From: Azolla caroliniana
Taxonomy: Eukaryota; Plantae; Polypodiophyta
Assembly: GCA_043228905.1 (NCBI GenBank)
Contig: JBHGNT010000003.1
Location: 496,001-560,000 of the forward strand
Length of the DNA: 64,000 nucleotides
Direction of reading: 5' to 3'
Below, in pieces: positions 14,601 to 44,554 of the stretch. Position numbers and translations under genes: made by a program. The number at the start of each line of letters is the position of its first letter. Position 1 is the first letter of the stretch. The notes under the pieces are model-generated. The model saw only the letters and a program-made list of their open reading frames with translations, searched no databases and was not told the origin of the DNA.

Positions 14601-15240
14601 TTTTTAATGTCCAATTATGCCCACTAAATAATGGACGCTTGTTTCTGAAACTAAGAATAAGTCTCACTTTTTCAAATATTTGGTACAGATCTTGTAATCT
14701 CCGTTGACCACTATGAATACTGCAAGAATTCTACAAACTGTTGCTAGGGCAACTGTTGCCTTTTTAATGTCCAATTATGCCTACTAAATGATGGACTCTT
14801 GTTTCTGAAACTAAGAATAAGTCTCACTTTTTCAAATATTTGGTACAGATCTTGTAATCTCCGTTGACCACTATGAATACTGCAAGAATTCTACAAACTG
14901 TTGCTAGGGCAGCTGTTGCCTTTTTAATGTCCAATTATGCCTACTAAATGATGGACTCTTGTTTCTGAAACTAAGAATAAGTCTCGCTTTTTCAAATATT
15001 TGGTACAGATCTTATAATCTCTGTCGACCACTATGAATACTGCAAGAATTCTACAAACTGTTGCTAGGGCAGCTGTTGCCTTTTTAATGTCCAATTATGC
15101 CTACTAAATGATGGACTCTTGTTTCTGATACTAAGAATAAGTCTCACTTTTTCAAATATTTGGTACAGATCTTGTAATCTCCGTTGACCACTATGAATAC
15201 TGCAAGAATTCTACAAACTGTTGCTAGGGCAGCTGTTGCC
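14601..15240 (+). repeat. Four tandem 160-bp copies covering the prohibitin intron end, acceptor, ATG and first 16 codons
   Basis: Units start at 14601, 14761, 14921 and 15081 and are near-identical. Each contains TTGGTACAG|ATCTT...ACCACTATGAATACTGCAAGA...GTTGCC. Confidence 0.95.
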
Positions 15241-16023
15241 TTGGGTCTAGGTGGATCATTTCTCAATGCCTCTCTATATACGGTAGACGGAGGTGAAAAA
15301 GCAGTGATTTTCGATCGATTCCGTGGTGTGTTAAACACAACTGTTGGAGAAGGAACACATATCTTGGTTCCATGGCTTCAGAGACCCATTATCTTTGACA
15401 TAAGAACTCATGCTCATTCTGTATCCTCTGTCACTGGAACAAAGGATTTGCAAATGGTTAACCTTACTCTACGCGTTCTCTATCGTCCCGATTCTGAACA
15501 ACTCCCGGACATCTTCAAGAAGCTTGGTGTTGAGTACTATGAGAAAATTCTTCCATCCATTGGCAATGAGGTCCTCAAATCAGTTGTCGCTCAGTTCAAT
15601 GCTGATCAACTCCTTACAGAAAGACCATATGTATCAGCATTAGTTCGTGAAAGTCTTCTTCGTCGCGCGAAGGAATTCGATATTCTTTTAGATGATGTTG
15701 CAATCACTCATTTATCATATGGTTCAGAGTTCTCTCGAGCTGTGGAGCAAAAGCAAGTGGCGCAACAAGAAGCTGAGAGGTCAAAGTTTGTGGTGGCGAA
15801 AGCGGAGCAAGAGATGAGGGCGGCTGTGATTAGGGCAGAAGGAGAGAGTGAATCGGCAAAGCTTATCTCTGACGCCACTGCAAAGGCAGGGCCTGGATTG
15901 ATTGAGTTGAGAAGAATTGAGGCTGCCAGAGAAATTGCAGGGACTCTCGCTAGAACCCCAAATGTCATGTATGTTCCCAGCGGTAATAACATGATGCTTG
16001 GCATGAATACCTTGTTCAAGTAG
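15193..16023 (+). CDS. PHB3: Prohibitin (type I, PHB3/PHB4-like), mitochondrial SPFH-domain protein
   Basis: Uninterrupted 276-aa ORF from ATG 15193 with [76 protein letters not shown]. The 5'UTR probably has a long intron ending at 15168, with exon 1 near 12.6-12.8 kb. Confidence 0.96.
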
Positions 16024-20684: not shown

Positions 20685-21079
20685 TGAAAACGTGAGTGTT
20701 TGCGGAAGCGTAAAACAGAGAACAACACAGAGAGAGAGAGAGAGAGAGAGCAGAACGTAATTTCAAAATTATTTTCGGACTCTGTATACACACTGTGCTA
20801 AGTAGCACTATTTATACAAGTCCTCTTGGGACTAACAGAAGTACCATGTACTTCAATGCTCACACGAGCATCTGACACTTACTACGAGACTATAGCTACC
20901 TAGTAGTCTATCCTATACTAGGCTTCCGATTGGACTTTCGGTTACGGATTGCACCCGGCCTCCACTGCTTGCCGGTTCGGTTGCTCACTGTCATACTGAT
21001 CCGTTTCGCCCGATCCGTCTCGCTTACTGGCTCCGGCTTATTCAGCCGATCCGGCTCCGGTTGAGCTTGCCGCTCAACA
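20685..21079 (-). repeat. Copia 3' LTR
   Basis: Direct repeat of 32881-33285; adjacent to the PPT. Confidence 0.95.
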
Positions 21080-21175
21080 CTCCCCCTCAAGCTCAACCTG
21101 AGGTGGGGTCGTAGTGTCGACCTCTGTGGCAGTCAGTTCTTCCAACCGACTTCTCCTGGCGTCACTCCGCCTTGC

Positions 21176-24100
21176 TCACGCTCCTCGTCCGGTCCGGTCT
21201 CGTTTGCCGCGACCCCTTTGGTTCTGCGCGCCTCGACCCTCTCGGTCGGCATGTCTGCTCAATAGGCCCATCTCAGCACTCACGTTGCTGTGACTCCGGC
21301 GCTTGCCGATCCGTCGGTTCTCCCACGATGGCATCGACTTCCGCTGTGTCTGTGTCCCCTTGGCCTTCAGTCGATTCGACTCATCCGGATCCATCTGTTG
21401 GTCCGAGTCAGCTGTCTCCGACTCGTTCCAGCTCTTGTCCGAATCGGTACACTCCGATTCGACTTCCGGCTTCAGGCCTCTCACCACATCGGACCACTTC
21501 CGAGTCTTGGCCTTCTCCATGCTTCCCTCGGCTTCTTCAGCCGGTGAATCGAAATCGAATTCTTCATTCGACTCCGCATCATGGTCAATACCGTCGTGAT
21601 GACCTCCGCACAACATGCACTTCTCTTCCTGAGTGCACAACTCTTCTTCACAGCTGCTTGCTCCGACCTGTTTAGATGTGTCGACTTCCTTCGTCGACTC
21701 GGCTTCCTTCATCTTCTTGTCTCCTCTTCTTCTGGCTCTCCTCTTACCGACGGGTTCAACAATTTTTTGGCCTTTGCCCGTTTCGGTAGAGACTTTGCCC
21801 TTGCTTCTCCCCCTCAAGTGCGGCACGTCGAGATGCTGAATACCAAGCATGTCGGTAAAGTGCTGCAACTTGTCCGATCCGAGCGGCTTGGTGAAGATGT
21901 CGACAACTTGCCGATCCGTATGAACATACCGTAGGTAAAATTCACCGCTCAGGACCCGCTCACGCACGAAGTGGTAGTGCACCTCGATGTGCTTTGTGTG
22001 AGCATGGAACACAGGGTTCCTGACGAGCTGCAGGTTGCTCATGTTATCGCAGTAAATCGAGATCGGGGTCGGTACCTCGATCCGCAAGTCTCGCAGCAGT
22101 CGCCGAAGCCAGATGGCTTCACAAGTGGCAACGGTAGCGGCCCGGTACTCAGCCTCAGTGCTTGACAAAGCCATTGTGGGCTGCTTCTTGCTGCTCCACG
22201 CAACGGCCGCGCTACCTATGGAGAACATGTATCCAGAAGTGGAGCGGCGATCAGACGCATCACCGGCCCAGTCAGCATCTGTGTAACCGACAAGCTCTTC
22301 GGGTATACCTCGCCGGTATAGGAGACCCCGGTCCTTAGTGCCGCTGACATACCGTAATATTCGTTGTGCGCACTGAAGGTGCTCCACGGTCGGCTTCTGC
22401 ATGAACTGACTTACCATGCCGACCGGATAACTGATGTCGGGTCGGGTGATGGTTAAGTAGATCAAGCTTCCGACAACCTGTCGGAACCGTTTCTCATTGC
22501 AGGCCGGTCCGGAGTTGGGACGGAGCTTCTGGTTCCGGTACAAGGGTGTGGAGACAGGTCGGTAATCCGTCATGCCGAACTTATACAACATATTCAACAC
22601 GTAATGTTGTTGCGAGAGCAATATGCCGTCGGGGGTCCGGATCACTTCGATCCCAAGAAAAAAATGAATGTCCCCCAGGTCCTTCATTTCGAATGCGTTC
22701 AACAACTGGGACTTGACGCGGTTGATTTCGGGAAGACCCGTTCTGGTGATGACTAAATCATCCACATACAAGAGTATACATACCGGACCGTCAGAGCCTT
22801 GCCGGATGAACAACGAAGAGTCCGACTTAGAGACAACAAACCCCAGCTTACGCAACCGGTGCGTGATCTTCGCGTTCCAAGCTCGGGGGGCTTGCTTCAA
22901 GCCGTAAAGCGACTTCTTCAGTCGGCATACCGCCGACTTGTTCATCTCTGATTGAAATCCGGGGGGCTGAGTCATAAAGACTTCTTCTTCAAGCTCGCCT
23001 TGAAGGAAGGCGTTCTTCACATCCATCTGGTGAAGATGCCACCCCCTTGCTGCAGCAATCGCCAGTACCACACGAACCGTCGTCATCTTTGCTACAGGAG
23101 CGAAGGTCTTGTCGTAGTCGATTCCGTGGGTCTGCGTGTATCCCTTCGCCACTAACCGGGCTTTGTATTGGTTAACAGAACCGTCGGCGTTGTACTTGAC
23201 CTTGTACACCCACTTGCATCCGATCGGTTTATAGTGACGGGGAGGATCAACTAGGTCCCAAGTTTCGTTGGCATCGAGTGCCCGCATATCTTCATCCATA
23301 GCGGCACGCCAATTTGCGTCCTTTGCCGCTTCTGCGTAGCTCTCCGGCTCACGCACTTCTGTCACTTTAGTCATGTACGCATAATGATGCGCCATGTATT
23401 CATTGTACCCGTACCGCATGACGGGATCCTTCTGGCGGGTTGATCGGCGCAACGCACCGTCACCTGATTTGAGGCCCTTCTTGGCCAATTCGGTCTTCGT
23501 TGCCAAAGATCCGCCTTTCTCCTTTCCGGAGTCGGATACACACCGATCCGACTCATCGTTGCCGGTTTCGAATTCCGGCATCTTCCTCTTCCCCTTCTCT
23601 TTGCGCGTGAACCGTTTCCTCGGTTCCTTGCGCGGGGAGAGCACGACAGAGTCTCCACCACTTGCCGTCTCTTCATCCGATTGGTCCAACCGACTCAATC
23701 GCTCGTTCGGTCCACTCAACCGTAACGATTCCGGACTCTCATCTTGAGTCCCGGCTTCATCATCCTCTGCCAGGGCTGATTCAGGCTCACTGGCCTGATC
23801 TTCCGAGATTGGGTCGGGATTGGAAGTCGGAGTCGGTACGGAGTACCAGGATGCCGATTCATCAAACTCGACATCCCGGCTAACTTGGACTTCCTTCGTC
23901 CGAGGGTTATAGCACTTATACCCCTTTTGCTCTTGAGCATAGCCGACTAGGATGCATTTTTCCGATTTTGCATCCAGCTTTCTCCGCTTCTAATCCGGCA
24001 CATGCACATACACTATGCTGCCGAATATCCGAAGGTGTCTTAAGTTCGGCTTGCGCCCGAAATACAGCTCATGAGCTGACACCTTGTCACCAATGCGGTT

Positions 24101-24466
24101 TTGTATGTAGACGGCCGTCTGGACCGCCTCTGCCTAGTAGAACCGGGGCATGCTCTTCTCCTCCAGCATTGCCCTTGCCGCTTCGACGAGTGTCCGGTTC
24201 TTCCTTTCGGTCACACCATTTTGCTCCGGTGTGTATCTCCAGCTGAACTCTCGCCAAATTCCCTTCTGCTGCAGATAACTAGTGAATTGGCCGGAAAAAA
24301 AAATTCCTTTCCGCCATCCGACCGAAGGCATTTGATCTTCCTCTCCGATTCCCGTTCCACCATCTTTTGGAGGCTCCGGAAACAGTCGAAGACTTCGCTC
24401 TTCCGCTCAATGAGGTAGATCCAAGCATGTCAAGTATAGTCGTCGATGAAGGAGACGAAGTACCGG
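21176..24466 (-). pseudogene. Copia pol: disrupted integrase, then an intact RT-RNase H ORF with a long C-terminal extension
   Basis: Integrase RYFVSFIDDYT*...PEQNGVTERKNR has stops and frameshifts (23720-24466). ORF 21176-23719 has KARLVAKGY, HQMDVKNAFL, SLYGLKQAPRAW, LYVDD, YTDADWAG, SSTEAEY and HIEVHYHFVRE. Confidence 0.92.
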
Positions 24467-25275
24467 TGTCGTGCCTTTCGGCTCCGGATCGTTGCGTGAG
24501 TCGGGTGGGAACCACAGAGGTCTTGGACTAGGAGAAAGAAGTTCGTGAGATAGAGATTAATTATGAGTAAATAGCAAAGAGAAAGATAAGAAACTCGTGA
24601 ATCACACGAGTATACTATATTAATTGGTACTTAGGGTGTTAAGAGAGAAGTAGATGTATAAATCGTGAATCCCACGAATAATTTTTGTATTGATTAATAC
24701 TTAATCCAAAAATCAACAACAACTACAATGTGCTCCCCATCCTTATATAGTGATGGGAGAGACTAAGCATAGCTACATGCTTTTTCTCATATGTTCATGC
24801 ACACTAAATGTGCATGTGATGCTTTTTTTTTTATTTCCTAAGTATAGGGCTCATGCACGCTAGATGTGCATGAGTTATTTTTAGTGTCTCGTGTTTTTTT
24901 TTTTTCTTTTTCATATATTAAAGAAATACACGATTTACCTTTTAATAAAGGTATGCATAAATAAAGGTCTTATACATATTAAATCTATATTTAAAACACT
25001 TAAGATAATTTAATGGAATGGTAAGGTTGGGGTTTGTCAATGTGGAGGTGCAAAGTTCGAATCACGCCCTGCGCAGTAGTGAGTATTTCTTTTTTTTACA
25101 TTTATGTCTCTTTATCCGGCTCTTCCTTGCCGGTATGCCGTTTTCTTCCTTGCCGGTATGCCGTTTTCCTCCTTGCCGGTATGCCGTTTTCTTCCGGTTC
25201 TCACCGAGCACTCCATTCTCTATCCGGAGGGACAAAAATATAATTTCCACATAGTGTGCAACCTACACTACGACA
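24467..25275 (-). repeat. Gypsy 3' LTR
   Basis: Direct repeat of 30943-31750. TATA-like CTATATAAGG (minus strand) near 24741-24750. Three ~22-bp TTGCCGGTATGCCGTTTTC repeats in U3. Confidence 0.95.
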
Positions 25276-28200
25276 CTCGCCCCCTCCAAACCCGCACATC
25301 CTCCGGTATGTGCCGAAGTTCTTGATTCTTCGTATCCGTCTTCATCCGAAGCTTCCTCCGATTCTCCCCTTATGTCGACTATGAGTTGTAATCCACTTTC
25401 TTCGCTTCCCGCATCATTGTGGTCTTCGTCCGATTGCTCCTCGTTGTCGGCCTCGACTTGGATCACATAAGGTTTGTCGTCGGTCCGCTTCTTAAAAATC
25501 TTCACCCGCTTCCCGGCTATAGGCACTCGTAGTATTGTTCCATCCAACTCGGACAGTCGGTACGTCCCGTTGTCGAAGACCTTCCGAACCTCGTACGGCC
25601 CGAACCACCTTTTCGCGAATTTCCGCATCGTTGTATGTTGATGGTCCAAGCTACTATCATAGACGATCACCCAATCTCCTTCTTCAATCCTCCTCGGTCG
25701 TAGTCGGTGCTTTGTGTCGAACCGGCTTTTGTTCCGGAATCGTGCTTCTTGTTGTCGGCGTGACGCTTCCGCTACATCTTTCGGTCTTCCCTCCAGTTGT
25801 CGTATCCGGACCGCTAGTAGTTCTTCCCGGCTCATCTCTTCCTTCCACGGTAGTATTGTCCATGTCGCGATTGCGGTTTCCGTTGGCATTACCGGTGCTT
25901 GTCCGGTCATGAGTTCTGCCGGCATGTAACCGGTCACGGAGCTATGCGTCGTCCGATCCGCCCATAGTGCATACGGAAGCATTTGTGGCCAATCCTTCAC
26001 CCTTCCGTCGCATGCCTTCGCAAGTGCTTTCACGATCGAACTATGTCCTCGTTCGATCTTCCCGTTGGCCTCCGGATTGTAGGCCGTTGTCAACGTTAAC
26101 CGAACTCCATGTTTGGCGAAGAATCCCCTAGCTTTGTCCGAGTCGAGTTCTCCCCGGTCCGCAATCACTTGTCCTACGCAGCCGTACCTACAAAACACTT
26201 CTTCCAAAAGAAATTGGCACACCGCGGCACACGTTTTCCTCCGAAGCGCTCGACCTTCAACTTGGTTTGTGAGATCTTCTCGAGCTAACACCAAGTATTT
26301 CTTTTGTCCAATCCCGGTCGGCATAGCTACAATGTCGACCATCCACTTGAAGTTGATTGTCGGTGAGAATGTCGGATGCAGCTCATCTCGGTGTCGGGCC
26401 CCGGAGTAGACTTGACATTTCTCGCAGCTTTCTGTGAACTCCGCGACATCTTTATACATGTTCTTCCACCAATATCTTTGCTTGATTTTCACAAAAGTTG
26501 CCCATGTTCCTCGATGTCCAGCCCAATCGGATTCGTGGAACTCGGACATTATCCGGTTTCGTTGCTCTTTCTTCCCGACTACTCGAAGTGGTATCCCATC
26601 CGGTCTTTTCGGCGTCCTCCATATTAAACCGTTTTCCAAGAAGAACTTTTGGACTTGCCTCTTCTTCCTTCGGATCTCGGCTCTCCTTTCTTTATCATTG
26701 GTTGAATCCTCGACCTCTTGTAGCATCTTCCCGATCATCAAGGTTTCCCCCTCGTATTCTTCTTCCCGGAATTCTCGGATCACGTTCACTCGGCATATGT
26801 GTTCTGACGTGAAGTAGTCTTCGGAAACTTCTTCATTATCTGATTCGGTTATGTCGTCTTCAAACCGCGCCCTCGATAACATGTCCGCTACCGCGTTGTC
26901 CTTCCCCGAGATGTGTCGAACCTCCGGATTAAGTGACTTGACATATGCAATCCACCTTAGCATAGCCACATCCGGTATCGTACAACACCGCATCATCCCG
27001 AGTATCGGAAGACAATCCGTCTCGATCACCACTTCAGCTCCGATCAAATAATCCCGATCCGATTTTATCGCCGACACGACTCCCCACAATTCTCTTTTGA
27101 CTTGTGCATATCCGCGTTGCCTTTCGTTGAGGACCTTTGCTCCAAATCGGATTGGATACCGCGAACCATCCGAGTCGGCTTGATTGATGACCCACCCGAT
27201 ACCGGTTGGACTTGTATCAACCGTTACTATGATTGGCCGCTCGTAGCTTGGCTTCTTAAGTGATTCCGCCCTCCATAGTGTCTTCTTGAGCTTCCTCATG
27301 GCTTTAGTGTGCTCCGGTTTCCACTCGAATTTCTTACCTTTCCGCAACAAGTGATAGAGCGGGTCCGCTATATGTGCATAGTGCGGAATCCATATGTGAT
27401 AGAATGCACACGCACCCAGAAACCTTCGGACTTCCGATGTTGACTCACATACTTCCTTCATAGCTTGAATCGCATCGATCTTTGTTGGTGACGGTCTTCG
27501 GCCGTAGGGTCCACATAGATGTCCGACCACCAATATTTCTTCTTGCCCGAATGCCGATTTCTCCCCGGAAAGTGTTAGGTGCACATCTTCTAGCTTTCGC
27601 AACACTTTCTCGCAATCATGAATATGGTCGACCACGAACTTTCGGCATCCCCGATCATCCATAGTCTCATCTTTTTCTTCCACCGCGCATCCTTTCATCG
27701 GAATGTCATCTAGAAACGGCATCGTTATCTCCGGAATGCAATCTCGAAGCACCTTGTTCATCGCGTTCATCATATGTGCAACCGAGTTTGTCGCTCCTTG
27801 TGGTAGTGTGCACATTCGAACTAATCCTATCGGTGTCCGCATGGTAGTGATGTCTCGGCTCTCCACGGCTAGTTGGAATTGGTCATACCCCGAGTATAGG
27901 TCCCCGATGGAGTATATCGCACGTCCGGCAAAAGCTTCCGCGAATTCGTCCACTATCGGACCGACTCCCGAGTTCCGGATCGTGACCTTGTTCACCGGTT
28001 GCAAGTCTTGGATGAATCGGAGTGACCCATTCTTCTTCGGAACCGTAAACCATCGATTTGAGTACGGAGCACTTGATGGCTCTAGAATCCCCATCGCCAC
28101 CTTCTCCTTGAGCAAGTCGATGACTTTCGGAATATGCGCCCGTGGCACCGGAATCGGCTTCAGGTTCCACGGTACATGATCAATCGTGAAAATCACCATC

Positions 28201-28868
28201 GGCTCCACTATCTTTGGATCAATGCATCCGATCTCCCTCGATGTGAACGCGAATGCTTTGCCGTGTTGCTCCAATATCTCTCGAAACCGTTTTTCTTCTT
28301 CTTGTAAGAGGAACCCACCTCCACCGATCCGAAGTTTCTTCCGGGTCTCATCTGTGAAGGCATGTCCGATATCCACGGACTTCCGAAGTGTCGGATCTCC
28401 CGAGACTTCTTTCTTCTTTTGTTCGCTATCGGCGGGTAGTGGTCCCGCGGCCGGTTTCACCTTTTTCTCCACGGTCTTGTATTTCGTACTTACCATTGCT
28501 TCTTCTTTGCGGAGCGCATCCGGCCCCATTTTCGCAACGATCTCGTACATCTCGACCGATTCCACCGGGACTACCCGGTTCCCTTGGCTTTTATCTTCCG
28601 CAAGCTCTTCAAGCCGTTGTAGTGTATTCCCATAGAACACTTCCTCGATCACTCCCACGATTTCTTCATCTTCTTTTATTATTGATGCCGACCGTAACTT
28701 ATCCTCCACTTTTCGGTATTGTTTCTTCATTCCTTCGGTTACGGCCGTGTACGTAGATGCCCCATCCGGGCCGATTCGTACTTGTTTTGCTCCGAGAGTT
28801 TTCTTCCTGTGTGGGGTATCAGGGCTTCTCGGACTATCACTTCCCCACTCCGCAACAGTCCGCTTTAA
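25263..28868 (-). CDS. Gypsy Pol (RT-RNase H-integrase), reached by -1 frameshift
   Basis: Open frame from the slippery site at 28868 through ATG 28730 to the stop at 25263, inside the 3' LTR. Motifs: DLYSGYDQ, LPQGATNS, PFLDD, VDTSPTGIG, ETDCLP, HHCC (FHESDWAGH...CEKC), D-D-E core, KRWFGPY. Confidence 0.93.
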   Translation of the reverse strand, partial: LKRTVAEWGSDSPRSPDTPHRKKTLGAKQVRIGPDGASTYTAVTEGMKKQYRKVEDKLRSASIIKEDEEIVGVIEEVFYGNTLQRLEELAEDKSQGNRVVPVESVEMYEIVAKMGPDALRKEEAMVSTKYKTVEKKVKPAAGPLPADSEQKKKEVSGDPTLRKSVDIGHAFTDETRKKLRIGGGGFLLQEEEKRFREILEQHGKAFAFTSREIGCIDPKIVEPMVIFTIDHVPWNLKPIPVPRAHIPKVIDLLKEKVAMGILEPSSAPYSNRWFTVPKKNGSLRFIQDLQPVNKVTIRNSGVGPIVDEFAEAFAGRAIYSIGDLYSGYDQFQLAVESRDITTMRTPIGLVRMCTLPQGATNSVAHMMNAMNKVLRDCIPEITMPFLDDIPMKGCAVEEKDETMDDRGCRKFVVDHIHDCEKVLRKLEDVHLTLSGEKSAFGQEEILVVGHLCGPYGRRPSPTKIDAIQAMKEVCESTSEVRRFLGACAFYHIWIPHYAHIADPLYHLLRKGKKFEWKPEHTKAMRKLKKTLWRAESLKKPSYERPIIVTVDTSPTGIGWVINQADSDGSRYPIRFGAKVLNERQRGYAQVKRELWGVVSAIKSDRDYLIGAEVVIETDCLPILGMMRCCTIPDVAMLRWIAYVKSLNPEVRHISGKDNAVADMLSRARFEDDITESDNEEVSEDYFTSEHICRVNVIREFREEEYEGETLMIGKMLQEVEDSTNDKERRAEIRRKKRQVQKFFLENGLIWRTPKRPDGIPLRVVGKKEQRNRIMSEFHESDWAGHRGTWATFVKIKQRYWWKNMYKDVAEFTESCEKCQVYSGARHRDELHPTFSPTINFKWMVDIVAMPTGIGQKKYLVLAREDLTNQVEGRALRRKTCAAVCQFLLEEVFCRYGCVGQVIADRGELDSDKARGFFAKHGVRLTLTTAYNPEANGKIERGHSSIVKALAKACDGRVKDWPQMLPYALWADRTTHSSVTGYMPAELMTGQAPVMPTETAIATWTILPWKEEMSREELLAVRIRQLEGRPKDVAEASRRQQEARFRNKSRFDTKHRLRPRRIEEGDWVIVYDSSLDHQHTTMRKFAKRWFGPYEVRKVFDNGTYRLSELDGTILRVPIAGKRVKIFKKRTDDKPYVIQVEADNEEQSDEDHNDAGSEESGLQLIVDIRGESEEASDEDGYEESRTSAHTGGCAGLEGASVVV

Positions 28869-28874
28869 AAATCC
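28811..28874 (-). promoter_or_regulatory. Predicted -1 programmed ribosomal frameshift signal (slippery heptamer plus pseudoknot)
   Basis: Minus strand reads G_GAT_TTT, stop TAA, spacer, stem 1 CGGACTGTTGC/GTGATAGTCCG, and loop GTGGGG pairing with downstream CCCCAC. Pol is in the -1 frame relative to gag-PR. Confidence 0.8.
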
Positions 28875-30904
28875 ATTCTCACTTGGGACAAGAGTTCCCT
28901 CTTGTTCCTTTCGTGATTTGCCGGCACCGTTAGGAATTGGACGGATTTCCCTCCGTTTTGGCTCCGAATTCGCGCAAAAGCCGCACCACTATCGAGCACC
29001 TTCGTCTCCATCCGTGAAGCCGTGATAAAGGGTTGGCCGAGGATGACAGAATGTGAAACCTCATCCTGCACAAAGAAATTTTGGTCAATTTCGACATCCC
29101 CGATCTTTACCGTCACATCCGGACAAGCCGCAAATAGGTCTTCTGTCGTTTTCGTGGCTGCCCGAATCTTCCATCCATGGTTGGTGTTTATAGGCCACTT
29201 CCCCTTTCGGTAGAACTCCTTGGACATCAAGTTGATCTCCGATCCGTGATCAATCAATGCTAGCACGGGTTCTTTGATGTTGCCGATTCGGACCGGAGTC
29301 TCCGTAGTCGCACGTGCCCAGTGTGGCCTTGTATAGTGGGAGTTCGGAATTTCGCCTTCCACTTCGGTGTCGTTCATTGAAACGGTATTTGCATTCACCC
29401 TTGGAGCATTTTCCTCCGTACTTTGTCTCTTCCTTTTCACAAGATCCACGAGAAGATCGTGAAACTCCTTCTTCGCTATTCCGAGTAGTTCCCGCAGCGA
29501 AAAATCGACCCGGCTATCCAAGATTCTTTCCTCGAACACTCTTTTCAAGTCGGTTTGTTGTTCTATGTCCGAGGCGAGCTTGAATGCCGGAGTCGCCTTT
29601 TCTTTTCCCTTACCTCCGGAGTTCCAGCTTTCCGGTATCTTCGATGGTCCGGCCGCATCCTCCGTGCGCCGTCGTTTCTCGTCCACATACACCTCATGTA
29701 ATTGACACAGGGCGTATATGCTATTCTTGTCGACAGGGCACTCCCATCCCGTAGCTTCCCGGACGCCTTCCGCGGTGTTTCGGATATCGTTGGAGTCGGT
29801 TTTCTCGGTGTTTCCTAGCACCTCCGGCCAGAAAGACGCCTTCGCTCCCGTTGACTCCCCGACACATATTCCCGCGGTTGTCGCATAGTTGCTTCTTGCC
29901 GCTAACTCCTCCTTGAGCACCTTCTTCATGCCGCCTTTCCGGAAGTTCGGTCGGAGTGGCTTCCGAGAGTCCATCGAATGAATCCGGTTTCCCTCGTAGT
30001 AGATGAGATCCCGTCGTAGCGCCTCCTTATGGTCGTCGCAATCCCTCCGATCGTGTTCGGCGCTATCGCACCATATGCACCGTCGATCCGTATATTTGGA
30101 GCTTGTGGGGCGGTCATCCGACTTCTTCACCATCGCGATCTTTAGATTCTCCATCTCCTTCAGCAGCTGCTCCACCGTAGACGCGTCGACTCCCTTCTCG
30201 GCCGTAATCTCCCGAGCCCTCGGTTGATGGTCTTCCAGTCCCGTTCTCGGTTTCAGAATCGGTTCCGAAACCCTCTTTTCTTCGTTGGCAAGCCATTGCC
30301 CCCTCTTCGTGTACCGCGCGACGATATCCCGCACGCTTTCCCATGTTTCGGTGAGGCCGCTTTCGGTGGTCGTGTCCTCAAGAAGCACTCCGAGATCTTT
30401 CCGGTCCCGGACGTCCACAGCTCGCAAAAACATGATGACTTTGTCCGGCGCAAGAATAGTTTGATCTCTCGCGGACAACCTCCCGAACCGACTTTCGAAT
30501 GTCGAAAACACTTCGAGGACCTTCAGCCCCTTACCTGACGTTTCCACCCAATCCTCGAATCCCCTCCGCGTTGCCTTGGAGGAGTCCTCGATGGCAAACG
30601 TGGTCTTTAACGCCTCTTCGAATGCTTCCCACGTCGAATTTTGTTGTTGCAACCCGTGGATACTCCCTTGAAGCCCGTCGGTCGCCACCCGGTTAAAGGA
30701 TGTCACTTGCAGTCCTTCCGAAGCCCGGCACCGGAGCATCTCCGCCTTGTAGTCCTGCAAATATCGCGACACATCCTTACCATTAAATTGCCTGTTGCGT
30801 TGCACCAGCCGCTCTACTGATGCCGAAATCTCCGACATCGTGCGTTGTTCTTGAAGCATCCGTTCGAACATCGCCATCATATTGTTAGCTTGTTGAGCCT
30901 CCAT
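28865..30904 (-). CDS. Gypsy Gag-protease polyprotein
   Basis: Open frame with likely ATG at 30904 (MEAQQ...), just after the PBS. Zinc knuckle CIWCDSAEHDRRDC, aspartic protease ALIDHGSEINLM and VILGQPF; ends RMDF*. Confidence 0.9.
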   Translation of the reverse strand: MEAQQANNMMAMFERMLQEQRTMSEISASVERLVQRNRQFNGKDVSRYLQDYKAEMLRCRASEGLQVTSFNRVATDGLQGSIHGLQQQNSTWEAFEEALKTTFAIEDSSKATRRGFEDWVETSGKGLKVLEVFSTFESRFGRLSARDQTILAPDKVIMFLRAVDVRDRKDLGVLLEDTTTESGLTETWESVRDIVARYTKRGQWLANEEKRVSEPILKPRTGLEDHQPRAREITAEKGVDASTVEQLLKEMENLKIAMVKKSDDRPTSSKYTDRRCIWCDSAEHDRRDCDDHKEALRRDLIYYEGNRIHSMDSRKPLRPNFRKGGMKKVLKEELAARSNYATTAGICVGESTGAKASFWPEVLGNTEKTDSNDIRNTAEGVREATGWECPVDKNSIYALCQLHEVYVDEKRRRTEDAAGPSKIPESWNSGGKGKEKATPAFKLASDIEQQTDLKRVFEERILDSRVDFSLRELLGIAKKEFHDLLVDLVKRKRQSTEENAPRVNANTVSMNDTEVEGEIPNSHYTRPHWARATTETPVRIGNIKEPVLALIDHGSEINLMSKEFYRKGKWPINTNHGWKIRAATKTTEDLFAACPDVTVKIGDVEIDQNFFVQDEVSHSVILGQPFITASRMETKVLDSGAAFARIRSQNGGKSVQFLTVPANHERNKRELLSQVRMDF

Positions 30905-30920
30905 CTCCTTGCCACCCGTC

Positions 30921-30938
30921 TTCACGTCGGGTTCACCA
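30921..30938 (-). promoter_or_regulatory. Primer-binding site complementary to tRNA-Trp
   Basis: Plus strand TTCACGTCGGGTTCACCA matches, from recall, the 3' 18 nt of plant cytosolic tRNA-Trp. It lies 4 nt from the 5' LTR. Confidence 0.8.
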
Positions 30939-30942
30939 ACTG

Positions 30943-31750
30943 TGTCGTGCCTTTCGGCTCCGGATCGTTGCGTGAGTCGGGTGGGAACCACAGAGGTCTT
31001 GGACTAGGAGAAAGAAGTTCGTGAGATAGAGATTAATTATGAGTAAATAGCAAAGAGAAAGATAAGAAACTCGTGAATCACACGAGTATACTATATTAAT
31101 TGGTACTTAGGGTGTTAAGAGAGAAGTAGATGTATAAATCGTGAATCCCACGAATAATTTTTGTATTGATTAATACTTAATCCAAAAATCAACAACAACT
31201 ACAATGTGCTCCCCATCCTTATATAGTGATGGGAGAGACTAAGCATAGCTACATGCTTTTTCTCATATGTTCATGCACACTAAATGTGCATGTGATGCTT
31301 TTTTTTTTATTTCCTAAGTATAGGGCTCATGCACGCTAGATGTGCATGAGTTATTTTTAGTGTCTCGTGTTTTTTTTTTTCTTTTTCATATATTAAAGAA
31401 ATACACGATTTACCTTTTAATAAAGGTATGCATAAATAAAGGTCTTATACATATTAAATCTATATTTAAAACACTTAAGATAATTTAATGGAATGGTAAG
31501 GTTGGGGTTTGTCAATGTGGAGGTGCAGAGTTCGAATCACGCCCTGCGCAGTAGTGAGTATTTCTTTTTTTTACATTTATGTCTCTTTATCCGGCTCTTC
31601 CTTGCCGGTATGCCGTTTTCTTCCTTGCCGGTATGCCGTTTTCCTCCTTGCCGGTATGCCGTTTTCTTCCGGTTCTCACCGAGCACTCCATTCTCTATCC
31701 GGAGGGACAAAAATATAATTTCCACATAGTGTGCAACCTACACTACGACA
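30943..31750 (-). repeat. Gypsy 5' LTR
   Basis: Direct repeat of 24467-25275; followed on the minus strand by the PBS. Confidence 0.95.
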
Positions 31751-32789
31751 ACGCGCCGGAATCAACATACCACACTTCCTCCATTTTGGAAGTGGTCTTC
31801 TTCATTGAGTTTGCCTTGTGATTCATCACCAAGGCTGGCCCCTTACCGGCCTTTCCGGTTCCGGATCCTCCTGATCCGTTTGCGTAGTGCGAGTTTTGCC
31901 GGCCATCCTTACCGGTCTTGCTGGATCCGGATTTGTCCGAATCGGCACGCTTTCTCCAGCACTCGTTTTCCCTGTGGCCTTTTTTGCCACAGTACCAGCA
32001 TTCCGTAGCGGATTTGTCTTGCCGGCCTCCGGCACCGCCTCGACTCCCCCTGCTTGTGGAAGTCCCGGAACTGCTGTCGGCACGCTCATAGTGCCTCCGT
32101 TCCTGCTCTTGCCGGCCGCCTCCACTGCGTGCCGACCCACCTCTTCCACCACGCCCATGGAGCCGATCCGTTCCCGTGTACAACATTCAGCTGTCCGGGG
32201 ATGCACTGGTAGATGCACCGGCGTGGTTCTCCTCTACAAGGAGCATCGACTGTAAGTCGAAGAATGAGGGGGTATTCTCCCTTGTACACACCGTAGTCCG
32301 GAACGCTCCGAACTTGGACGCCAGGCCTCCGAGACATACCTGCACCATCTCGTCTTCCTCTACGGTAACATTGATAGAGGCGAGCGAGTCGCAGATCTCC
32401 TTTATCCGGCCCGTGTAGTCTGCCATGGACATGTTCTTCTGTCGAACATTGCTCAACTCCTGTCTGAGTTGCAGCTTCCGGGCAGTGGTGCTTGCGGCGA
32501 AAACCTTTTTCAGGTTCCCCCAAGCATCCTTCGGTGTCTTGGCGTCACGGATGTGGCTGAGCAGCTGATCGCCGACACTGGACGCGAAGCAGTACATCAC
32601 CCTGGTTGCCGCCTGTTCCCATACCGGGAAGTCCTTGTGTGCCGAGTCGGGCGCCGCATCATTCGCTCCTTCGACATAACTCTAGTACCCGTGTCCAAGC
32701 AGGTACTGGTGCATCTTGTAAGACCAGGATGCGTAGTTGCTCCTGTTGAGCTTCTCCACCGGGAGCGACGTAGCCATGCCTCTATCCAT
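31751..32789 (-). pseudogene. Copia gag and start of protease (premature stops)
   Basis: MDRGMATSLPVEKLNRSNYASWSYKMHQYLLGHGY* (TGG>TAG), UBN2-type gag (KDAWGNLKK), zinc knuckle CWYCGKKGHRENEC, and protease WYVDSGA cut by the gypsy LTR. Confidence 0.9.
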
Positions 32790-32880
32790 GTCTTCTACTG
32801 TGTCTGTTTTCGACCTGTTAGGGTTTTCTTCTCAAGAGTAAATGTCTGCAGAGGTTCTCAACCCTCGCGCTCTGATACCA

Positions 32881-32924
32881 TGAAAACGAGAGTGTTTGCG
32901 GAAGCGTAAAACAGAGATCAACAC

Positions 32925-32956
<32 letters not shown>

Positions 32957-33285
32957 CAGAACGTAATTTCAAAATTATTTTCGGACTCTGTATACACACT
33001 GTGCTAAGTAGCACTATTTATACAAGTCCTCTTGGGACTGACAGAAGTACCATGTACTTCAATGCTCACACGAGCATCTGACACTTACTACGAGACTATA
33101 GCTACCTAGTAGTCTATCCTATACTAGGCTTCCGATTGGACTTCCGGTTACGGATTGCACCCGGCCTCCACTGCTTGCCGGTTCGGTTGCTCACCGTCAT
33201 ACCGATCCGTTTCGCCCGATCCGTCTCGCTTACCGGCTCCGGCTTATTCAGCCGATCCGGCTCCGGTTGAGCTTGCCGCTCAACA
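32881..33285 (-). repeat. Copia 5' LTR
   Basis: Direct repeat of 20685-21079, adjacent to the tRNA-iMet PBS. Confidence 0.95.
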
Positions 33286-33749
33286 ATGTTGAATTGCCAA
33301 TAGGCAAGATGAACACTCCACCGAGGAAAGAACTTCTACTTACATTAATAATACTCTCTTCAACTTACATTGATATGCTTCGACTCCATGCCTACCATCA
33401 AATACAAATGCATTATGCATATCCCAAATTTGATGCAACCCCTAATGTCTCAATAATAGCAAAACAATCTTCGTCTTTGATTTTGGGTTGATTCGTTGAA
33501 TTGGCAAACATCCACAATCTATTAAATAACACTGACAAAACTCGTAAATTTTGAGAAATGTAACTCCAAAGTTGACAAGCAATCAAACAATCTATGAAAC
33601 AATGACTACGATTTTGCACCTAAACAATGGAGAAGAAGCAATTGCATTTTGCTAGTCCCAAATCAAAACTCTTCAAATGAAGACCTTTGCTACAAGTGGC
33701 AATTTAGATCTCTCTCTTTCTCTTATAAATAATTGGTTTCATTATGAAA

Positions 33750-35100: not shown

Positions 35101-36369
35101 CTATAACAACATCCACATTGAGTGTGACACCATTTTAAGAGCTTTCTTCAACTATGGTAACAAAGGAAGATAGGAAGACACCATAATCGATTGGACCACC
35201 TTTGATGAGACTGACATTCCAAGTTTATGACATACAACCGAAATCCCAACAAACCTCGAGCGTCAAACTTAGGGTCCCAAAATCATACCCACCTGATCGT
35301 ATATGAGATCCACATCCAATACTCATGATTGTATATGAGATCCACATCCAATACTCGTATAGGAGTTGTCTACGATACATTCAACCATATTCTAAAACTA
35401 AAAAATCATTCCCTTGATTCACATGTACCATATTTGGATTGACAATCGATGAGTTGTTGCATCTTAGCAAGATGATAACTATACTATTGGAATCCGGAAA
35501 TAATGACTCGACATAAGCTACAAGTCCTCATCTAGTGATGCATACATTAATAATGAATTAAACTTAGGCAAAGATCACGAAATTTGTTGAAGAAAATCGA
35601 TTTGTTGTTGGGCATTAGTTATTGTTTACTTTCGATGCATCATCCTAATGTCTTGTAGTGTTACATCACCCCTTGCTATCTACTTGTTACAAAAAGGTTA
35701 CCAAAATTACATTAAAAGAGAATCAAAGTAAGATTGGCGCAAGAACTAAGAGTAAAAATGTAATGGGGCCTTCCCAAACAAGGATTTATACAAATAGAAA
35801 CCTTGGGTAGCCTACAAATAGAGGTAGAAGAAAAGAGCCCCATGGCTCAATCTCGATACATTGAGGATCATGGTTCGGAGCAAAAAACCCCACCACCAGT
35901 CCCACATTTAAAACCACATCCAAGTAATCAACAAAGAATATATCCTTAAGTCTACTCAACAACCCCAAGCTCATTTTCCCGTTATTCTTCCTTCATTCTG
36001 TCACTTAATTCCAGTGGTCATAGAAGGATAGTATACTATTAAATTATTTTACCAACTGCCTGATTTGGGTAATGCAGAATGGAACGACATAAATTAAGTT
36101 ACTCGGGCTAAGGACTAATCAATTTCTCGACATTAGAGAGGCGTTCCGTTCTGAAGCTAGATGAACGCTACTCAAATGATCAGAATCTGCTGGGAGGAAT
36201 CGTCTTTTGATATCCAGATCTGCTGAATCTTATCCAAATCGAGATGAAGTTTGCTGTAAAACTATTGTAACTTGAATAGCGCAATTTGTAAAGGCTCATG
36301 ACTAGCCAAACGTAATAATATTAGGAGGATATTGAGGTCGTTCTGCTCATCAGCTGTAGGATATAAAGA

Positions 36370-37739
36370 CATTTAACTTGGCGTGTGCGAGAGCATCTTG
36401 CGCTCGAATTCAGGGAAGTGAAAACGTTGATTGATTGCATTTATGGAGGATATCTATCCTTAAATGTACTTTCCTGGTAAATCCATTTTGTTTCTCTTTC
36501 AGCATATGTATGTCTGGTTCAAACAATTCAGTAAAAGTTGCGAGCAAACAGTGCTTGCACTGGAATTCAGGGAAGAGGAAACGATGATTGATTGCGTTTA
36601 TGGAGGATATCTATATTTTAATGTACTTTCCTGGTAAATCCATTTTGTTTCTCTTCAGCATATGTATGTCCGGTTCAAACAATTTATTAAAAGCTGCTAG
36701 CAAGCAGATCTTGTGTTGGAATGCAGAGAAATGAAAACGTTGATTGCGTTTACGGAGGATATCTATCTTTAAATGTAATTTCTCGATAAATCCGTTTTGC
36801 TTCTCTTCAGCATATGTCTGGTTCAAACAAATTATGAAAAGTTGCGAGCAAGCAGATCTTCTGTTGGAATGCAGAGAAGTGATTGATCACTTTTATGGAG
36901 GATATCTATCCTTAAATATACTTTCCCGGTGAATCCATTTGGCTTCACTTCAGCATACATTCGAAAACGTTGATTGAATATATATCTTTCTATCTTTAAA
37001 TATACTTTCCTGGTAAATCAGTTTTGCTTCTCTTCAGGATATGTATGTCTGGTTTAAACAATTTATTAAAGAGTTGCAACCAAGCAGAACATGTGTTCGA
37101 ATGCAGGGAAGTGAAAACGTTGATTGATTGCATTTATGGAGGATATATCTTTAAATGCTTGGTTCAAACAATTTATTAAAGATTGCTAGCAAGCAAATCT
37201 AATTATGGAATGCGGACAAGTGAAAACTTTGATTGATTGCGTTTATGGAGGACATCAATCTTTAAATATACTTTGCTGGTGAATCCATTTTGCTTCACTT
37301 CAGCATACATATAAAACCGTTGATGGATTGCGTTTATGGAGGATACCTATCTTTAAGTATCCTTTACTGGTGATTCCATTTTGCTTCACTTCAGCATACA
37401 TATAAAACCGTTGATTGATTGCGTTTATGGAGGATACCTATCTTTAAGTATCCTTTACTGGTGATTCCATTTTGCTTCACTTCAGAATACATATCTGGTT
37501 AAAACAATTTATTAAAAGTTGCGAGCAAGTACTTTCCTAGTAAACCCGATTTGCTTCTCTTCAGCATATATATGTCACCAATTTACTGAAATGTTTCGAG
37601 CAAGCAGAGCAGATCTTATGTTGGAATGCGTACAAGTGATACCTATATTCCAATATGCATTGTTGGTAAATCCGTTTTTCTTCTCTTCAGCATATATATA
37701 TATTTCTGGTTCATTCAATTTGGAAAAAAGTTTTGAGCA
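36370..37739. repeat. Diverged tandem satellite, ~155-bp monomer with ~90-bp truncated variants, about 10 units
   Basis: Recurring AAAACGTTGATTGATTGCGTTTATGGAGGATATCTATCTTTAAA...TAAATCCATTTTGCTTCTCTTCAGCATA...CTGGTTCAAACAATTTATTAAAAG near 36421, 36579, 36734, 36880, 36964, 37114, 37223, 37313 and 37405. Confidence 0.85.
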
Positions 37740-40700
37740 GACCATCAGTTGTTATCAGCTAAATCCTTCTCAGAGGAAGATCTTAATAAGAGACAACTTG
37801 TACTAGAAACAGTACAACAGAAGGTCACTCATGTAATGGCTTCCCCGTTGCTTCAACCATTTATAGACACTGAAGTCTGGACAGCGGCTAAATCCCTGGG
37901 TAAATATGTGTGTCTTGGAAATGATGCCATAGGAGTGGTATTCTATTTGCACTATTGGGACTTGTTGGGGCCTATTCTTACTAGACCAGTTAATTTAATT
38001 TTCTCAACAGGAAAGGAATCATATACATGATTCCAAAATCAGATGCTCAATGTAATGAAATATCAAAATGGGGTCCAAAAACTTTGCTTAACGACATCTA
38101 TAAAATAGTAGCAAAAACTATAGCTAATAGAATGCGACCACTGCTTCCCTCAATTATACATAATACACAATCAGGATTCCTTCAAGATAGAAGCATCTTT
38201 GACAATATCTTCCTTTTTTGGGAGATGATTGCATTGCCTCAACATCACAAACAATCCCTTGCTATACTATTATTAGACTTTGAGAAAGCATATGATAAAG
38301 TAGATTGGGACTTTCTGGAGGTAGTTCTATTAAGATTAGGGTTTCCAAGTGCATGGATAAAAGTGTGTCTGCATTATATAGACATGTGCCTAGCTCAGTT
38401 CTATTTATTGGAGGCAATGATACATTATTTCCAATTTCTAGATCTGTTCGACAAGGTTGTTCGTTAGCACCGTTTTATTTTATTTTATTTGGGGAAAGCT
38501 TTATCATCTTTTCTTAGATCCTCAATGACGGCTATCCAAGCAATAGCCTTACCTATTGCAAACTCGACAGTTCTTGATGCTGAGTTTGCGGATGACATTG
38601 CTCTTTATATTCACTGAGATGTTGTTAATCTTGATCGGGTACAGAATGATTTATAAATATTTTCAGATGCTACTGGAGCCTCTCTCAATTGGAATAAATT
38701 TGTAGGCCTTTGGGTCAGTGATGAACCGCGTCCAGAATGGTATCCAGGCCCTGCATTCCGTTGGCTAAATCATGGGGAGCCGATTCGTTATTTAGTCTGT
38801 CTTGTTGGTATAGATTTATCATCTGAAGTGATGCTATCACCATTGCTATTATCAATTAAGCATAAGTTGGTATATTGGGACTCGTAGCAGTTATCCCTTG
38901 CAAGTCGGGTTGTCATTGCAAATTCGGTGTTGTTGGCCTCAATGTGGTTTATTGCATCTGCTTGGTTGTTCTTTAGGTCGGCAATCATGAAAGTTCAAAG
39001 CCTCATACGTAACTTCCTTTGGGGTGGGAAAAATGGATCGTGTGCAGTGGCCAAGGTGGCATGAGATGTTTTGATTAGGCCAAAAAGTCAGGGACGGTTG
39101 GCTCTAATAGATCCCTTGATACAATCTCGAGCTCTCTTGACAAAGTTTGTAGTCAGAGGACTGTTGCCAAGGACAGAGGCATGGAAGGGCATGTTGCTTA
39201 ATTAGTTGATGCAATTATCTCCCAAGACGGGAGGAAACTGGTTGCCTTCTTTGACATGAATGTTCTTGATAGATATTCAGACACCGAGACGGAATCTAAC
39301 ATCCAATAGATTTCTACCGGGGATCATCAAAGCATGGGATGCAATCAAGATTTTTTTACGTAAGGAGATGCCTAACACATGGGATGGTTGGATGAATCAA
39401 TCGCTTTTGGCTAATTCTCTCGTTCGTAATTTTATTGGAAATGTATTGGACCTTAGACCTCGTCTTGCATGGGGAAAACTTAACAATGGGCCAACAATAT
39501 CAATAGGATCCTGGATTCATTTTCAGCTGATGCCAGAAATGGATCGCCTCAAGCAGTTACACTCGATATATGGGGCGGAGACAATGACAATGGATATTTT
39601 AGTAGCCTTCTCTCAAGCTTCATCACGATTTCAGCCAATGCAAGAGCATATGTGGTTTGGTTGCCTTACAAATGGCATGATGCTCTTTGTTAAAGGAATG
39701 TCTGTAGATGAGTGTATTTTTTATTTCCATATTCAACAGGATAATAAATTGTAGCCTTATACAGCCTTATACACCCTCTAATAATTTGCTACAAAATTTG
39801 CTTGTTGTTCCAGTTAGGGTGATTGCAAAACTTCTAAGAAATAGCTCTTAGATCCACAACCGTCAATAGCCCATTTGTTAGATATGCTTTGGTTATATGC
39901 ATGACAACCAATCAATAGGCTAATGTGGGACCCAGGGGGATGGTCTTGGACTAGTCCCATGATAAATCCAATGCAAAAAGTTCCGTTCTTTAAGTATAAT
40001 GTGAAATTTGGTAGAACCTTACTCATGTCTAAGAATATTCCAACTCCTGCGGCTCAAAAGCACTGGAATAAGTGGGGTGTATGAAGCAATCATTTGAAGG
40101 CTTATTGGAAATGGATTTGGTCTTTTAGGGGACCAACAAAATACACTCTTCATATGACTTTTACTACATGCAGCACTACCAATAGGTTAGTCTTTAAAAG
40201 GAAACGGGGCACCCGTTTTTAGACAATGTAGTTATTGTGGTGACTTGCAAGAAACTACCAAGCATGCTCTCTAGTCTTGTTCACTAGCCCAAAAGGTATG
40301 GAATAAAGTTCTTTCTTCATTCTTAACAATTAATGGAGGTTGCCTATTCTCCTAGGGATCAAAGATATGAGAGGTTCTCCATTCCAATCTCTTATTGTAT
40401 GAGGCAGATGATGCTCTCACCTTATTGTATGGGACAACTTATTGGCAGTAGTGTGTGGGCAATATGACAATATGTCAAGCCCTTCAGAGGTTGTTCTAAA
40501 GAAAAAGAAAAAATTGCTACAATTATGGAAGAAGTTGCCCCTATTCACGATCTCCATGGGACAACTTATTGGCAGTAGTGCATGGGAAATATGACAATAT
40601 GTCAAGCCCTTCAAAGGTTGTTGTAAAGAAAAAGAAAAAATTGCTACAATTATGGAAGAAGTTGCCCCTATTCACGATCTCCATGGGACAACTTATTGGC

Positions 40701-40927
40701 AGTAGTGCGTGGGAAATATGACAATATGTCAAGCCCTTCAGAGGTTGTTCTAAAGAAAAAGAAAAGATTGCTGTAGTTATGGAAGAAGTTGCCTCTATTC
40801 ACAATCTCCTCTAAAGGACCTTCCCTTGATTATCCTTTTTGTATATAACACTCTCTAATTGTACAGTTTGCAACCATAGGGCGTTTTTTCTTATTAATGA
40901 AAGAAATCTTTTTGGGTAGAAAAAGAG
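37740..40927 (+). mobile_element. 5'-truncated, degenerate L1/Tx1-like LINE inserted into the satellite
   Basis: RT motifs LLNDIYKIVAKTIANR, QSGFLQDRSIFDN, LDFEKAYDKVDW, SVRQGCSLAP and EFADD; zf-RVT remnants at ~40.2 kb; A-rich end. Candidate TSD GTTTTGAGCA at 37730-37739 and 40928-40937. Confidence 0.88.
40429..40809. repeat. Three tandem 127-bp copies near the LINE 3' end
   Basis: ATGGGACAACTTATTGGCAGTAGTG... starts at 40429, 40556 and 40683. Confidence 0.9.
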
Positions 40928-44213: not shown

Positions 44214-44507
44214 TGTCATGATATGACAAAACTCGAACCCATAACCTTATGTTATATGTGTCGAGCTTTTGACCATTACATTATCTATTGTAATATGTAT
44301 GATATTATTTTCATTTAAGTTTTACTATAGAAAATTATTGTATATTCCAAATTTCTCTAGAACATTCTAGAAGCTTCAAGACTATTCCTGAAAACACTAT
44401 AAAAAGAGGCACAAGGCATTATTTCAAACCAAGTTGGTTCAACGCTAGTCTTAAGCCTCAAAGCTATTTTGTACTTACTCTTCACATAATATATCATTTG
44501 TTATCAT

Positions 44508-44554
<47 letters not shown>

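Follow-up and report, generated by a model that had tools for sequence, protein, structure and literature searches.

A predicted pseudoknot-stimulated −1 frameshift signal after the protease in a Phygy-like retrotransposon lineage of Azolla caroliniana, and a sister clade with pol in the +1/−2 frame

The window analysed here is a stretch of 64,000 nt from the fern Azolla caroliniana (assembly GCA_043228905.1, contig JBHGNT010000003.1, positions 496,001 to 560,000 of the forward strand), and it carries on its minus strand a Ty3/gypsy retrotransposon of 7285 bp whose two open reading frames (ORFs) overlap in different frames. The junction between them, which follows the protease, appears from sequence comparison to be a pseudoknot-stimulated programmed −1 ribosomal frameshift signal, a reading to which we assign a probability of roughly 0.84. 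The −1 offset is fixed family-wide. Two points go beyond what an initial annotation of the window had proposed: the signal extends through the whole lineage, and in a sister clade pol has come to lie in the +1/−2 frame. On balance, we consider it probable that an old lineage of moss, liverwort and fern elements uses a pseudoknot-driven −1 shift after the protease, and that one of its clades switched to a pseudoknot-driven −2 shift through a change of GAU to GUU and the loss of one spacer base, converging on the arterivirus site RG_GUU_UUU.

ORF1 (28865..30904, minus strand) encodes Gag (DUF4100) and an aspartyl protease, with 679 amino acids from the first ATG (30904) to an Asp-Phe-stop terminus, and its frame extends from stop to stop over 31003-28865. 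The protease match is weak (E 0.004, under the Pfam cut-off), with a DHGSE motif at 29251. ORF2 (25263..28988, minus strand) has Pfam domain matches to reverse transcriptase (RT), RNase H and integrase; it lies in the −1 frame, overlaps ORF1 and is open starting 121 nt upstream of the ORF1 stop, hence across the site. The 3' end of ORF1 reads ATG GAT TTT TAA, in which a heptamer of the X_XXY_YYZ type, G_GAU_UUU (28868..28874, minus strand), stands in frame with ORF1 and is followed immediately by the TAA stop codon (28865..28867, minus strand). The initial annotation had described this ORF1 end, the heptamer and the −1 RT frame, and all three were recovered when coordinates and open frame were re-read from the minus strand. 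It had also called G_GAU_UUU a slippery site of dianthoviruses and umbraviruses, which is in print (PMC5009743); the same review treats G_GA as a tolerated exception to the rule of three identical X, used by these viruses, and ranks G_GGU_UUU among the most shifty heptamers. Counted from the heptamer, a spacer of 5 nt leads to an 11-bp stem that includes three G-U pairs (stem 1, 28830..28862, minus strand; 28862-28852 with 28840-28830), closed by an 11-nt loop in which GUGGGG (28848-28843) can pair with CCCCAC (28816-28811) 13 nt 3' of the stem, giving a predicted stem 2 (28811..28848, minus strand). At 5-6 nt downstream, the predicted structure falls within the 5-9 nt expected of −1 frameshift signals.

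In the proposed mechanism, the predicted H-type pseudoknot would hold the ribosome on G_GAU_UUU, with GAU and UUU in the P and A sites. Most ribosomes would terminate at the following codon and release Gag-protease, and in a minority tRNA-Asp and tRNA-Phe would re-pair one base back, on GGA UUU, and enter pol to produce Gag-PR-Pol. Such a scheme would couple protease to Gag at a 1:1 ratio, with RT and integrase in lesser amounts. Folding in vivo, the slippage itself and its rate we infer by analogy with established −1 frameshifting (PMC5009743).

The frame offset was followed through copies in the 523-Mb Azolla caroliniana genome. The 221-nt junction found 1332 candidates, and the 40 scored matches, chosen by similarity, were all identical; all 30 copies fetched from the element's own family have pol at −1 and open. 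A pattern free of run length gave 436 genomic matches, and among the first 100 by position 99 have the same length, one is a base shorter and none has a length that would bring the frames together. The initial annotation had raised the possibility that other copies carry gag and pol in one frame, which would make the junction a private indel in the T run; in-frame copies number 0 of these first 100 and 0 of 62 diverged loci described below, and the private indel is ruled out. A pattern of heptamer, 6 nt and stem occurs 2624 times in the genome versus 21 times for its reversed control. The first 30 loci of this wider pattern include 3 without a protease match and 2 without a pol match; 22 of the 25 measurable loci are at −1, and the other 3 are broken copies in different frames. 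Seven pattern matches without protease resembled neither ORF and were excluded as unrelated. A pattern for families with longer Gag had no match in the Azolla caroliniana genome.

More distant relatives came from metagenomes, in which 80 loci had DNA; 3 lacked a protease match, 4 ran off the contig end and 11 lacked a pol match, leaving 62 measurable. They derive mostly from one accession series and therefore sample many element families but probably few hosts. With the window excluded, 59 of the 62 are at −1, 3 at +1 and none in frame, and in 57 of the 59 the −1 frame is open from before the stop. Of 73 related loci (window excluded), 67 have an in-frame G_G[AUG]U_UUY heptamer at most 8 codons from where ORF1 stops, with natural variants G_GAU_UUC, G_GGU_UUU (L092, L101) and G_GUU_UUY, and all three stop codons, TAA, TAG and TGA, are in use. 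In seven loci no more than 10 nt of open −1 frame precede the stop, so that the heptamer is the one place left where a shift could occur. Protein ends were compared as well: among 120 listed of 246 ORF1 homologs, 73 end in D/G-F (70 of them DF), another 26 have five further residues behind D/G-F, 2 have a single residue behind VF, and 19 end otherwise. Named homologs with the D/G-F endings come from Riccia, Physcomitrium and Adiantum, known here as protein only. ESM Atlas clusters matching ORF1 measure 829-864 aa, combine DUF4100 with a protease and are commonest in Basidiomycota; fungal relatives, too, may end the first ORF after the protease.

The pseudoknot was assessed by comparing 33 families less than 85% alike (window included), aligned with MAFFT without structure input. 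Here the 5-nt spacer and 11-bp stem of the initial annotation hold for the window itself and give way, as a conserved feature, to an 8-bp core that begins 6 nt 3' of the heptamer; only 11 of 32 families form the outer pair responsible for the 5-nt spacer. In the stem-1 core 96.6% of cells are paired, with two-sided change in 6 of 8 pairs, and in stem 2 78.8% are paired, with two-sided change in 5 of 6 pairs; taken together, both stems are paired in 89% of cells and show two-sided change in 11 of 14 pairs. The complementarity behind the loop pairing proposed at the outset thus covaries across families, and the alignment that had been suggested to look for a conserved offset and covariation returned 59 of 62 loci at −1 and compensatory change in both stems. 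The covariation score is 0.423 versus 0.254 in shuffled alignments (0 of 500 reach the native value) and at most 0.178 with slid partners. In an alignment-free comparison, each family's loop paired with its own downstream segment at −10.9 kcal/mol, versus −9.1 with segments of other families and −6.8 when shuffled, and none of 20000 permutations reached the native value. This pairing is specific to its place, with z −5.1; eight alternative segments and seven alternative 10-mers gave values between −2.1 and +2.2. Loops other than GGGG occur with matching partners, such as GCGAGA/UCUCGC in L095 and AUGAGGGU/ACCCUCAU in L077.

Several observations weigh against a pseudoknot-stimulated −1 shift. 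The 57-nt structure by itself folds only slightly to modestly better than shuffles (z −1.29; 27 of 200 shuffles equally good), so the case for the pseudoknot rests on conservation; the shuffle controls, moreover, ignore kinship among families, and stem-2 pairing is weak in some of them, e.g., L046, L091 and L097. The junction structure has no match in Rfam. At the gag-pol junction of Candida Tca2, a predicted pseudoknot gave no recoding in a reporter (PMC7175516). All 18 long homologs (17 from Riccia, 1 from Physcomitrium; protein only) are gene models in which Gag and Pol are fused; their junctions mostly differ, although three have one junction in common, and the varying junctions suggest that the introns were invented. 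A single frame holds both protease and RT in P0236, which is one of 81 unnamed pol homologs; this protein of 1374 aa is a single member whose junction bears a GFF motif, and it is an indel copy or else a relative with only one ORF. Finally, three polyA runs from another organism (X7-X9; roughly 12% of every run was read) gave reads mostly 80-95% alike that cover mainly gag; they leave the junction almost uncovered (depth 0, 0 and 1.4, no joint spanning it) and hence are uninformative on splicing. On 29500-31000 of the window, almost all of these reads lie on the strand expected of sense transcripts, from a related element.

The alternative that survives best, although improbable, is that the same −1 product arises by slippage of a single tRNA-Phe in the P site with the stop codon in the A site, the structure being a plain hairpin or a minor helper. 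The stop does stand directly 3' of the heptamer in most families, and a nearby stop strongly affects the G_GAU_UUU site of pea enation mosaic virus (PEMV) (PMC5009743). However, in L078, L091, L092, L096, L097 and L101 the stop comes 1 or 5 codons later while heptamer and stem register are unchanged, which favours tandem slippage over a stop-dependent slip; the spacer of 5-6 nt likewise suits tandem slippage, and stem 2 covaries.

Less probable is splicing as in Ogre, by which an intron across the stop would join protease to RT in some transcripts and the structure would regulate this. Ogre has an intron at the identical position between protease and RT (PMC6317226), and the Riccia gene models fuse both frames; yet a conserved upstream donor-like site is lacking (absent in 22 of 33 families, at scattered positions in the others), and the 200 nt 3' of the heptamer are not U-rich (U 0.23). 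Furthermore, the pol frame is open from the heptamer, the ratio of nonsynonymous to synonymous substitution (dN/dS) in the linker is below 1 in 7 of 7 pairs (0.21-0.87), and an intron would not fix a −1 offset in 59 of 62 loci. Separate production of pol, through internal initiation, reinitiation or a subgenomic RNA, seems slightly more doubtful still: ORF2 contains in-frame ATGs and weak promoter activity is reported for the Tca2 junction (PMC7175516), but the first Met of the pol frame wanders from residue 1 to 109 across families, and the fixed offset, the heptamer and the open stretch from heptamer to Met would be left unexplained. Slippage of RNA polymerase II or RT in the T run, yielding in-frame RNAs or copies, is very improbable: a five-T run adjoins the structure and structure-stimulated RT slippage is known (PMC5737552), yet the run is short, is interrupted in the G_GAU_UUC families, is longer in 0 of 100 listed genomic copies, and shows no listed indel in the contigs of three public runs, which drop rare variants.

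A sister clade departs from the −1 arrangement. It is represented by two of the three +1 metagenome loci, L077 and L085, in which pol occupies the +1/−2 frame. Their site reads AG_GUU_UUU, their stem core lies one base nearer to it, and both predicted stems are kept. The third locus, L069, has the usual heptamer but is broken, and it was kept out of this clade, whose sequences are L077:2830-2914, L085:2492-2576, L111-L130 and L191-L202. In an RT tree of 26 of the 33 families (L036, L047, L069, L091, L092, L105 and L107 omitted), L077 and L085 are sisters with support 100/100 and every other row is at −1; a quick ORF1 tree had 30 rows. The RT tree is midpoint-rooted and places the clade at an unresolved basal fork, so the direction of the change between −1 and −2 is taken from rarity. 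The L077 family is also present in the Azolla caroliniana genome. All 82 of its length-free matches there are equally long, and among 19 copies with a measurable frame 17 are at +1/−2, 15 of those open. Twelve whole copies were taken from the best matches. Ten are young copies with pairs of long terminal repeats (LTRs) 99.1-100% identical, 7 of these ten with a matching NCGN target-site duplication, and the primer-binding site (PBS) is the same tRNA-Trp PBS as in the window's element. Six of the 12 have an uninterrupted +1/−2 pol frame of 1152 codons. The pol genes of L077 and L085 differ by dN 0.10 and dS 1.09 (ratio 0.09, 886 codons), and this divergence with its low dN/dS implies that the +1/−2 arrangement is old and that pol has remained under selection.

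Analysis of the site indicates that pol in this clade is most likely reached by a −2 slip, and a natural switch from −1 to −2 between the two clades is likely. The change of GAU to GUU is what permits the A-site tRNA to re-pair perfectly at −2, arteriviruses make their −2 shift on RG_GUU_UUU (PMC5644247, PMC4937337), and −2 shifting in vitro is reported to work best at spacers 1-2 nt shorter than the −1 optimum (PMC3458567). Two successive −1 shifts are excluded, as all 12 copies meet a stop immediately in the −1 frame. A +1 shift may instead give access to pol, above all where a sixth U is present, as it is in L085 and in 7 of the 82 matches; the two products would differ by one residue at the junction. 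Also against a −2 slip, P-site re-pairing at −2 is poor, and some −1 families, among them that of the window, likewise have a 5-nt spacer when the outer pair is counted. If the −2 shift is real, it would be a natural case stimulated by RNA structure in a nuclear eukaryotic element that has −1 relatives in the same genome.

The element in the window is bounded by a 5' LTR of 809 bp (30942..31750, minus strand) and a 3' LTR of 810 bp (24466..25275, minus strand). A G-rich stretch read directly from the sequence 5' of the 3' LTR (25276..25290, minus strand) resembles a polypurine tract and may act as one. The PBS (30922..30939, minus strand) is complementary to the 3' end of tRNA-Trp(CCA); a pattern derived from it plus a T-loop motif had 63 genomic matches, and three of three fetched are tRNA-Trp according to ARAGORN, whereas the bare PBS pattern, with 5800 matches, only counts elements. 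The initial annotation had judged the element young and intact. Its LTRs are 99.75% identical, but its flanks, GCGT and CCGG, which each fit NCGN, are unlike each other and form no matching target-site duplication. The gypsy element is inserted within a copia element, and across the insertion (flanks at 31751-31760 and 24456-24465) the host copia skips from its protease motif to the integrase core. The mismatched flanks and the copia gap possibly reflect a recombinant of two insertions, or a deletion. The host copia itself (~20700-33300) has LTRs ~96% identical and stops interrupting its integrase region.

By its traits (PBS, target sites and domains) rather than by position in an RT-RNase H-integrase tree, the element is best described from sequence as Phygy-like. 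The Phygy lineage is characterized by a tRNA-Trp PBS and NCGN 4-bp target sites (PMC6317226). The element has this PBS; its two flanks fit NCGN but differ, and the matching duplications are those of the sister clade. The domain order GAG-PR-RT-RH-INT (Gag, protease, RT, RNase H, integrase), from Pfam scan and motif positions, is that expected of Phygy. A Pfam scan of the gypsy ORFs at E≤0.01 found no chromodomain or extra domain, again as in Phygy, and the element is likewise short and filled by coding sequence, with named homologs from Physcomitrium patens; unlike Phygy, this copy measures 7285 bp against a listed 7656-9968 bp (PMC6317226). Elsewhere in the window, the segments 14441-15380, 36353-37723, 40429-40809 and 44215-49639 hold tandem repeats of 160-bp and 127-bp units, an AT-rich 90-157 bp family and an additional direct-repeat pair about 5 kb apart and 92-96% alike, the pair probably marking another LTR element. 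In the genome, tandemly spaced matches to the tRNA-Trp 3' arm cluster at C8:17.80-17.82 Mb, C16:4.99-5.11 Mb and C5:10.11 Mb and are possibly tRNA gene arrays.

Searches of the open literature, which leaves subscription journals mostly outside and here includes PMC7466625 and PMC11963269, met neither an account of this signal nor any retrotransposon with a −2 shift. For plant LTR elements whose frames are split, a review of 2016 mentions +1 arrangements only, on the authority of a 2003 survey; as −2 cases it gives phage Mu, arteriviruses and Trichomonas vaginalis virus 1 (PMC5009743). In the table of PMC6317226 the ORF organisation of Phygy is given as "not determined", GAG overlaps PROT in Tcn1 and Selgy, and no lineage is listed with GAG-PROT overlapping RT. 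The placement of the shift after the protease, which the initial annotation had emphasized, does correspond to the Gag-Pro of Rous sarcoma virus and avian sarcoma/leukosis virus (RSV/ASLV) (PMC12789967), but the point was overstated, and the arrangement is not unique among plants, since Ogre and Retand also have the protease with Gag (PMC6317226). The likely −2 clade is the more surprising part of the results. The −1 signal is a clear one present in thousands of plant-element copies, and the −1 overlap accounts for the way gene finders break these elements up or join their parts by introns. The sister clade and its −1 relatives form a natural matched pair for studying what sets −1 against −2, and the dozens of diverged cassettes provide a ready library for frameshifting on plant ribosomes.

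Each known system shares part of this arrangement. Ogre and Retand have a break between GAG-PROT and RT (PMC6317226), but Ogre has an intron or spacer there and Retand a single stop codon, and neither is listed with overlapping frames in that source. As in the alpharetroviruses RSV/ASLV, protease is encoded with Gag and pol would be reached via a pseudoknot-stimulated −1 shift (PMC12789967, PMC5009743); unlike them, the element is a nuclear plant retrotransposon without env, with G_GAU_UUU adjoined by the stop and a compact predicted pseudoknot. The dianthovirus red clover necrotic mosaic virus (RCNMV) and the umbravirus PEMV RNA2 share G_GAU_UUU, plant ribosomes and a nearby stop, although their stem-loops pair with RNA kilobases away (PMC5009743), whereas a local H-type pseudoknot is predicted here. 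The sister clade, in turn, resembles arterivirus nsp2TF in AG_GUU_UUU with perfect −2 A-site re-pairing, and the L077 family resembles nsp2N in the immediate stop in the −1 frame (PMC4937337, PMC5644247). Arterivirus shifting, however, relies on a protein complex at a C-rich motif ~10 nt away and involves no RNA structure (PMC4937337, PMC5644247), whereas in the sister clade a pseudoknot is predicted at 5 nt. Its site would therefore work like the arterivirus site while belonging to a different system, one with two predicted stems instead of a structure-free, protein-stimulated shift.

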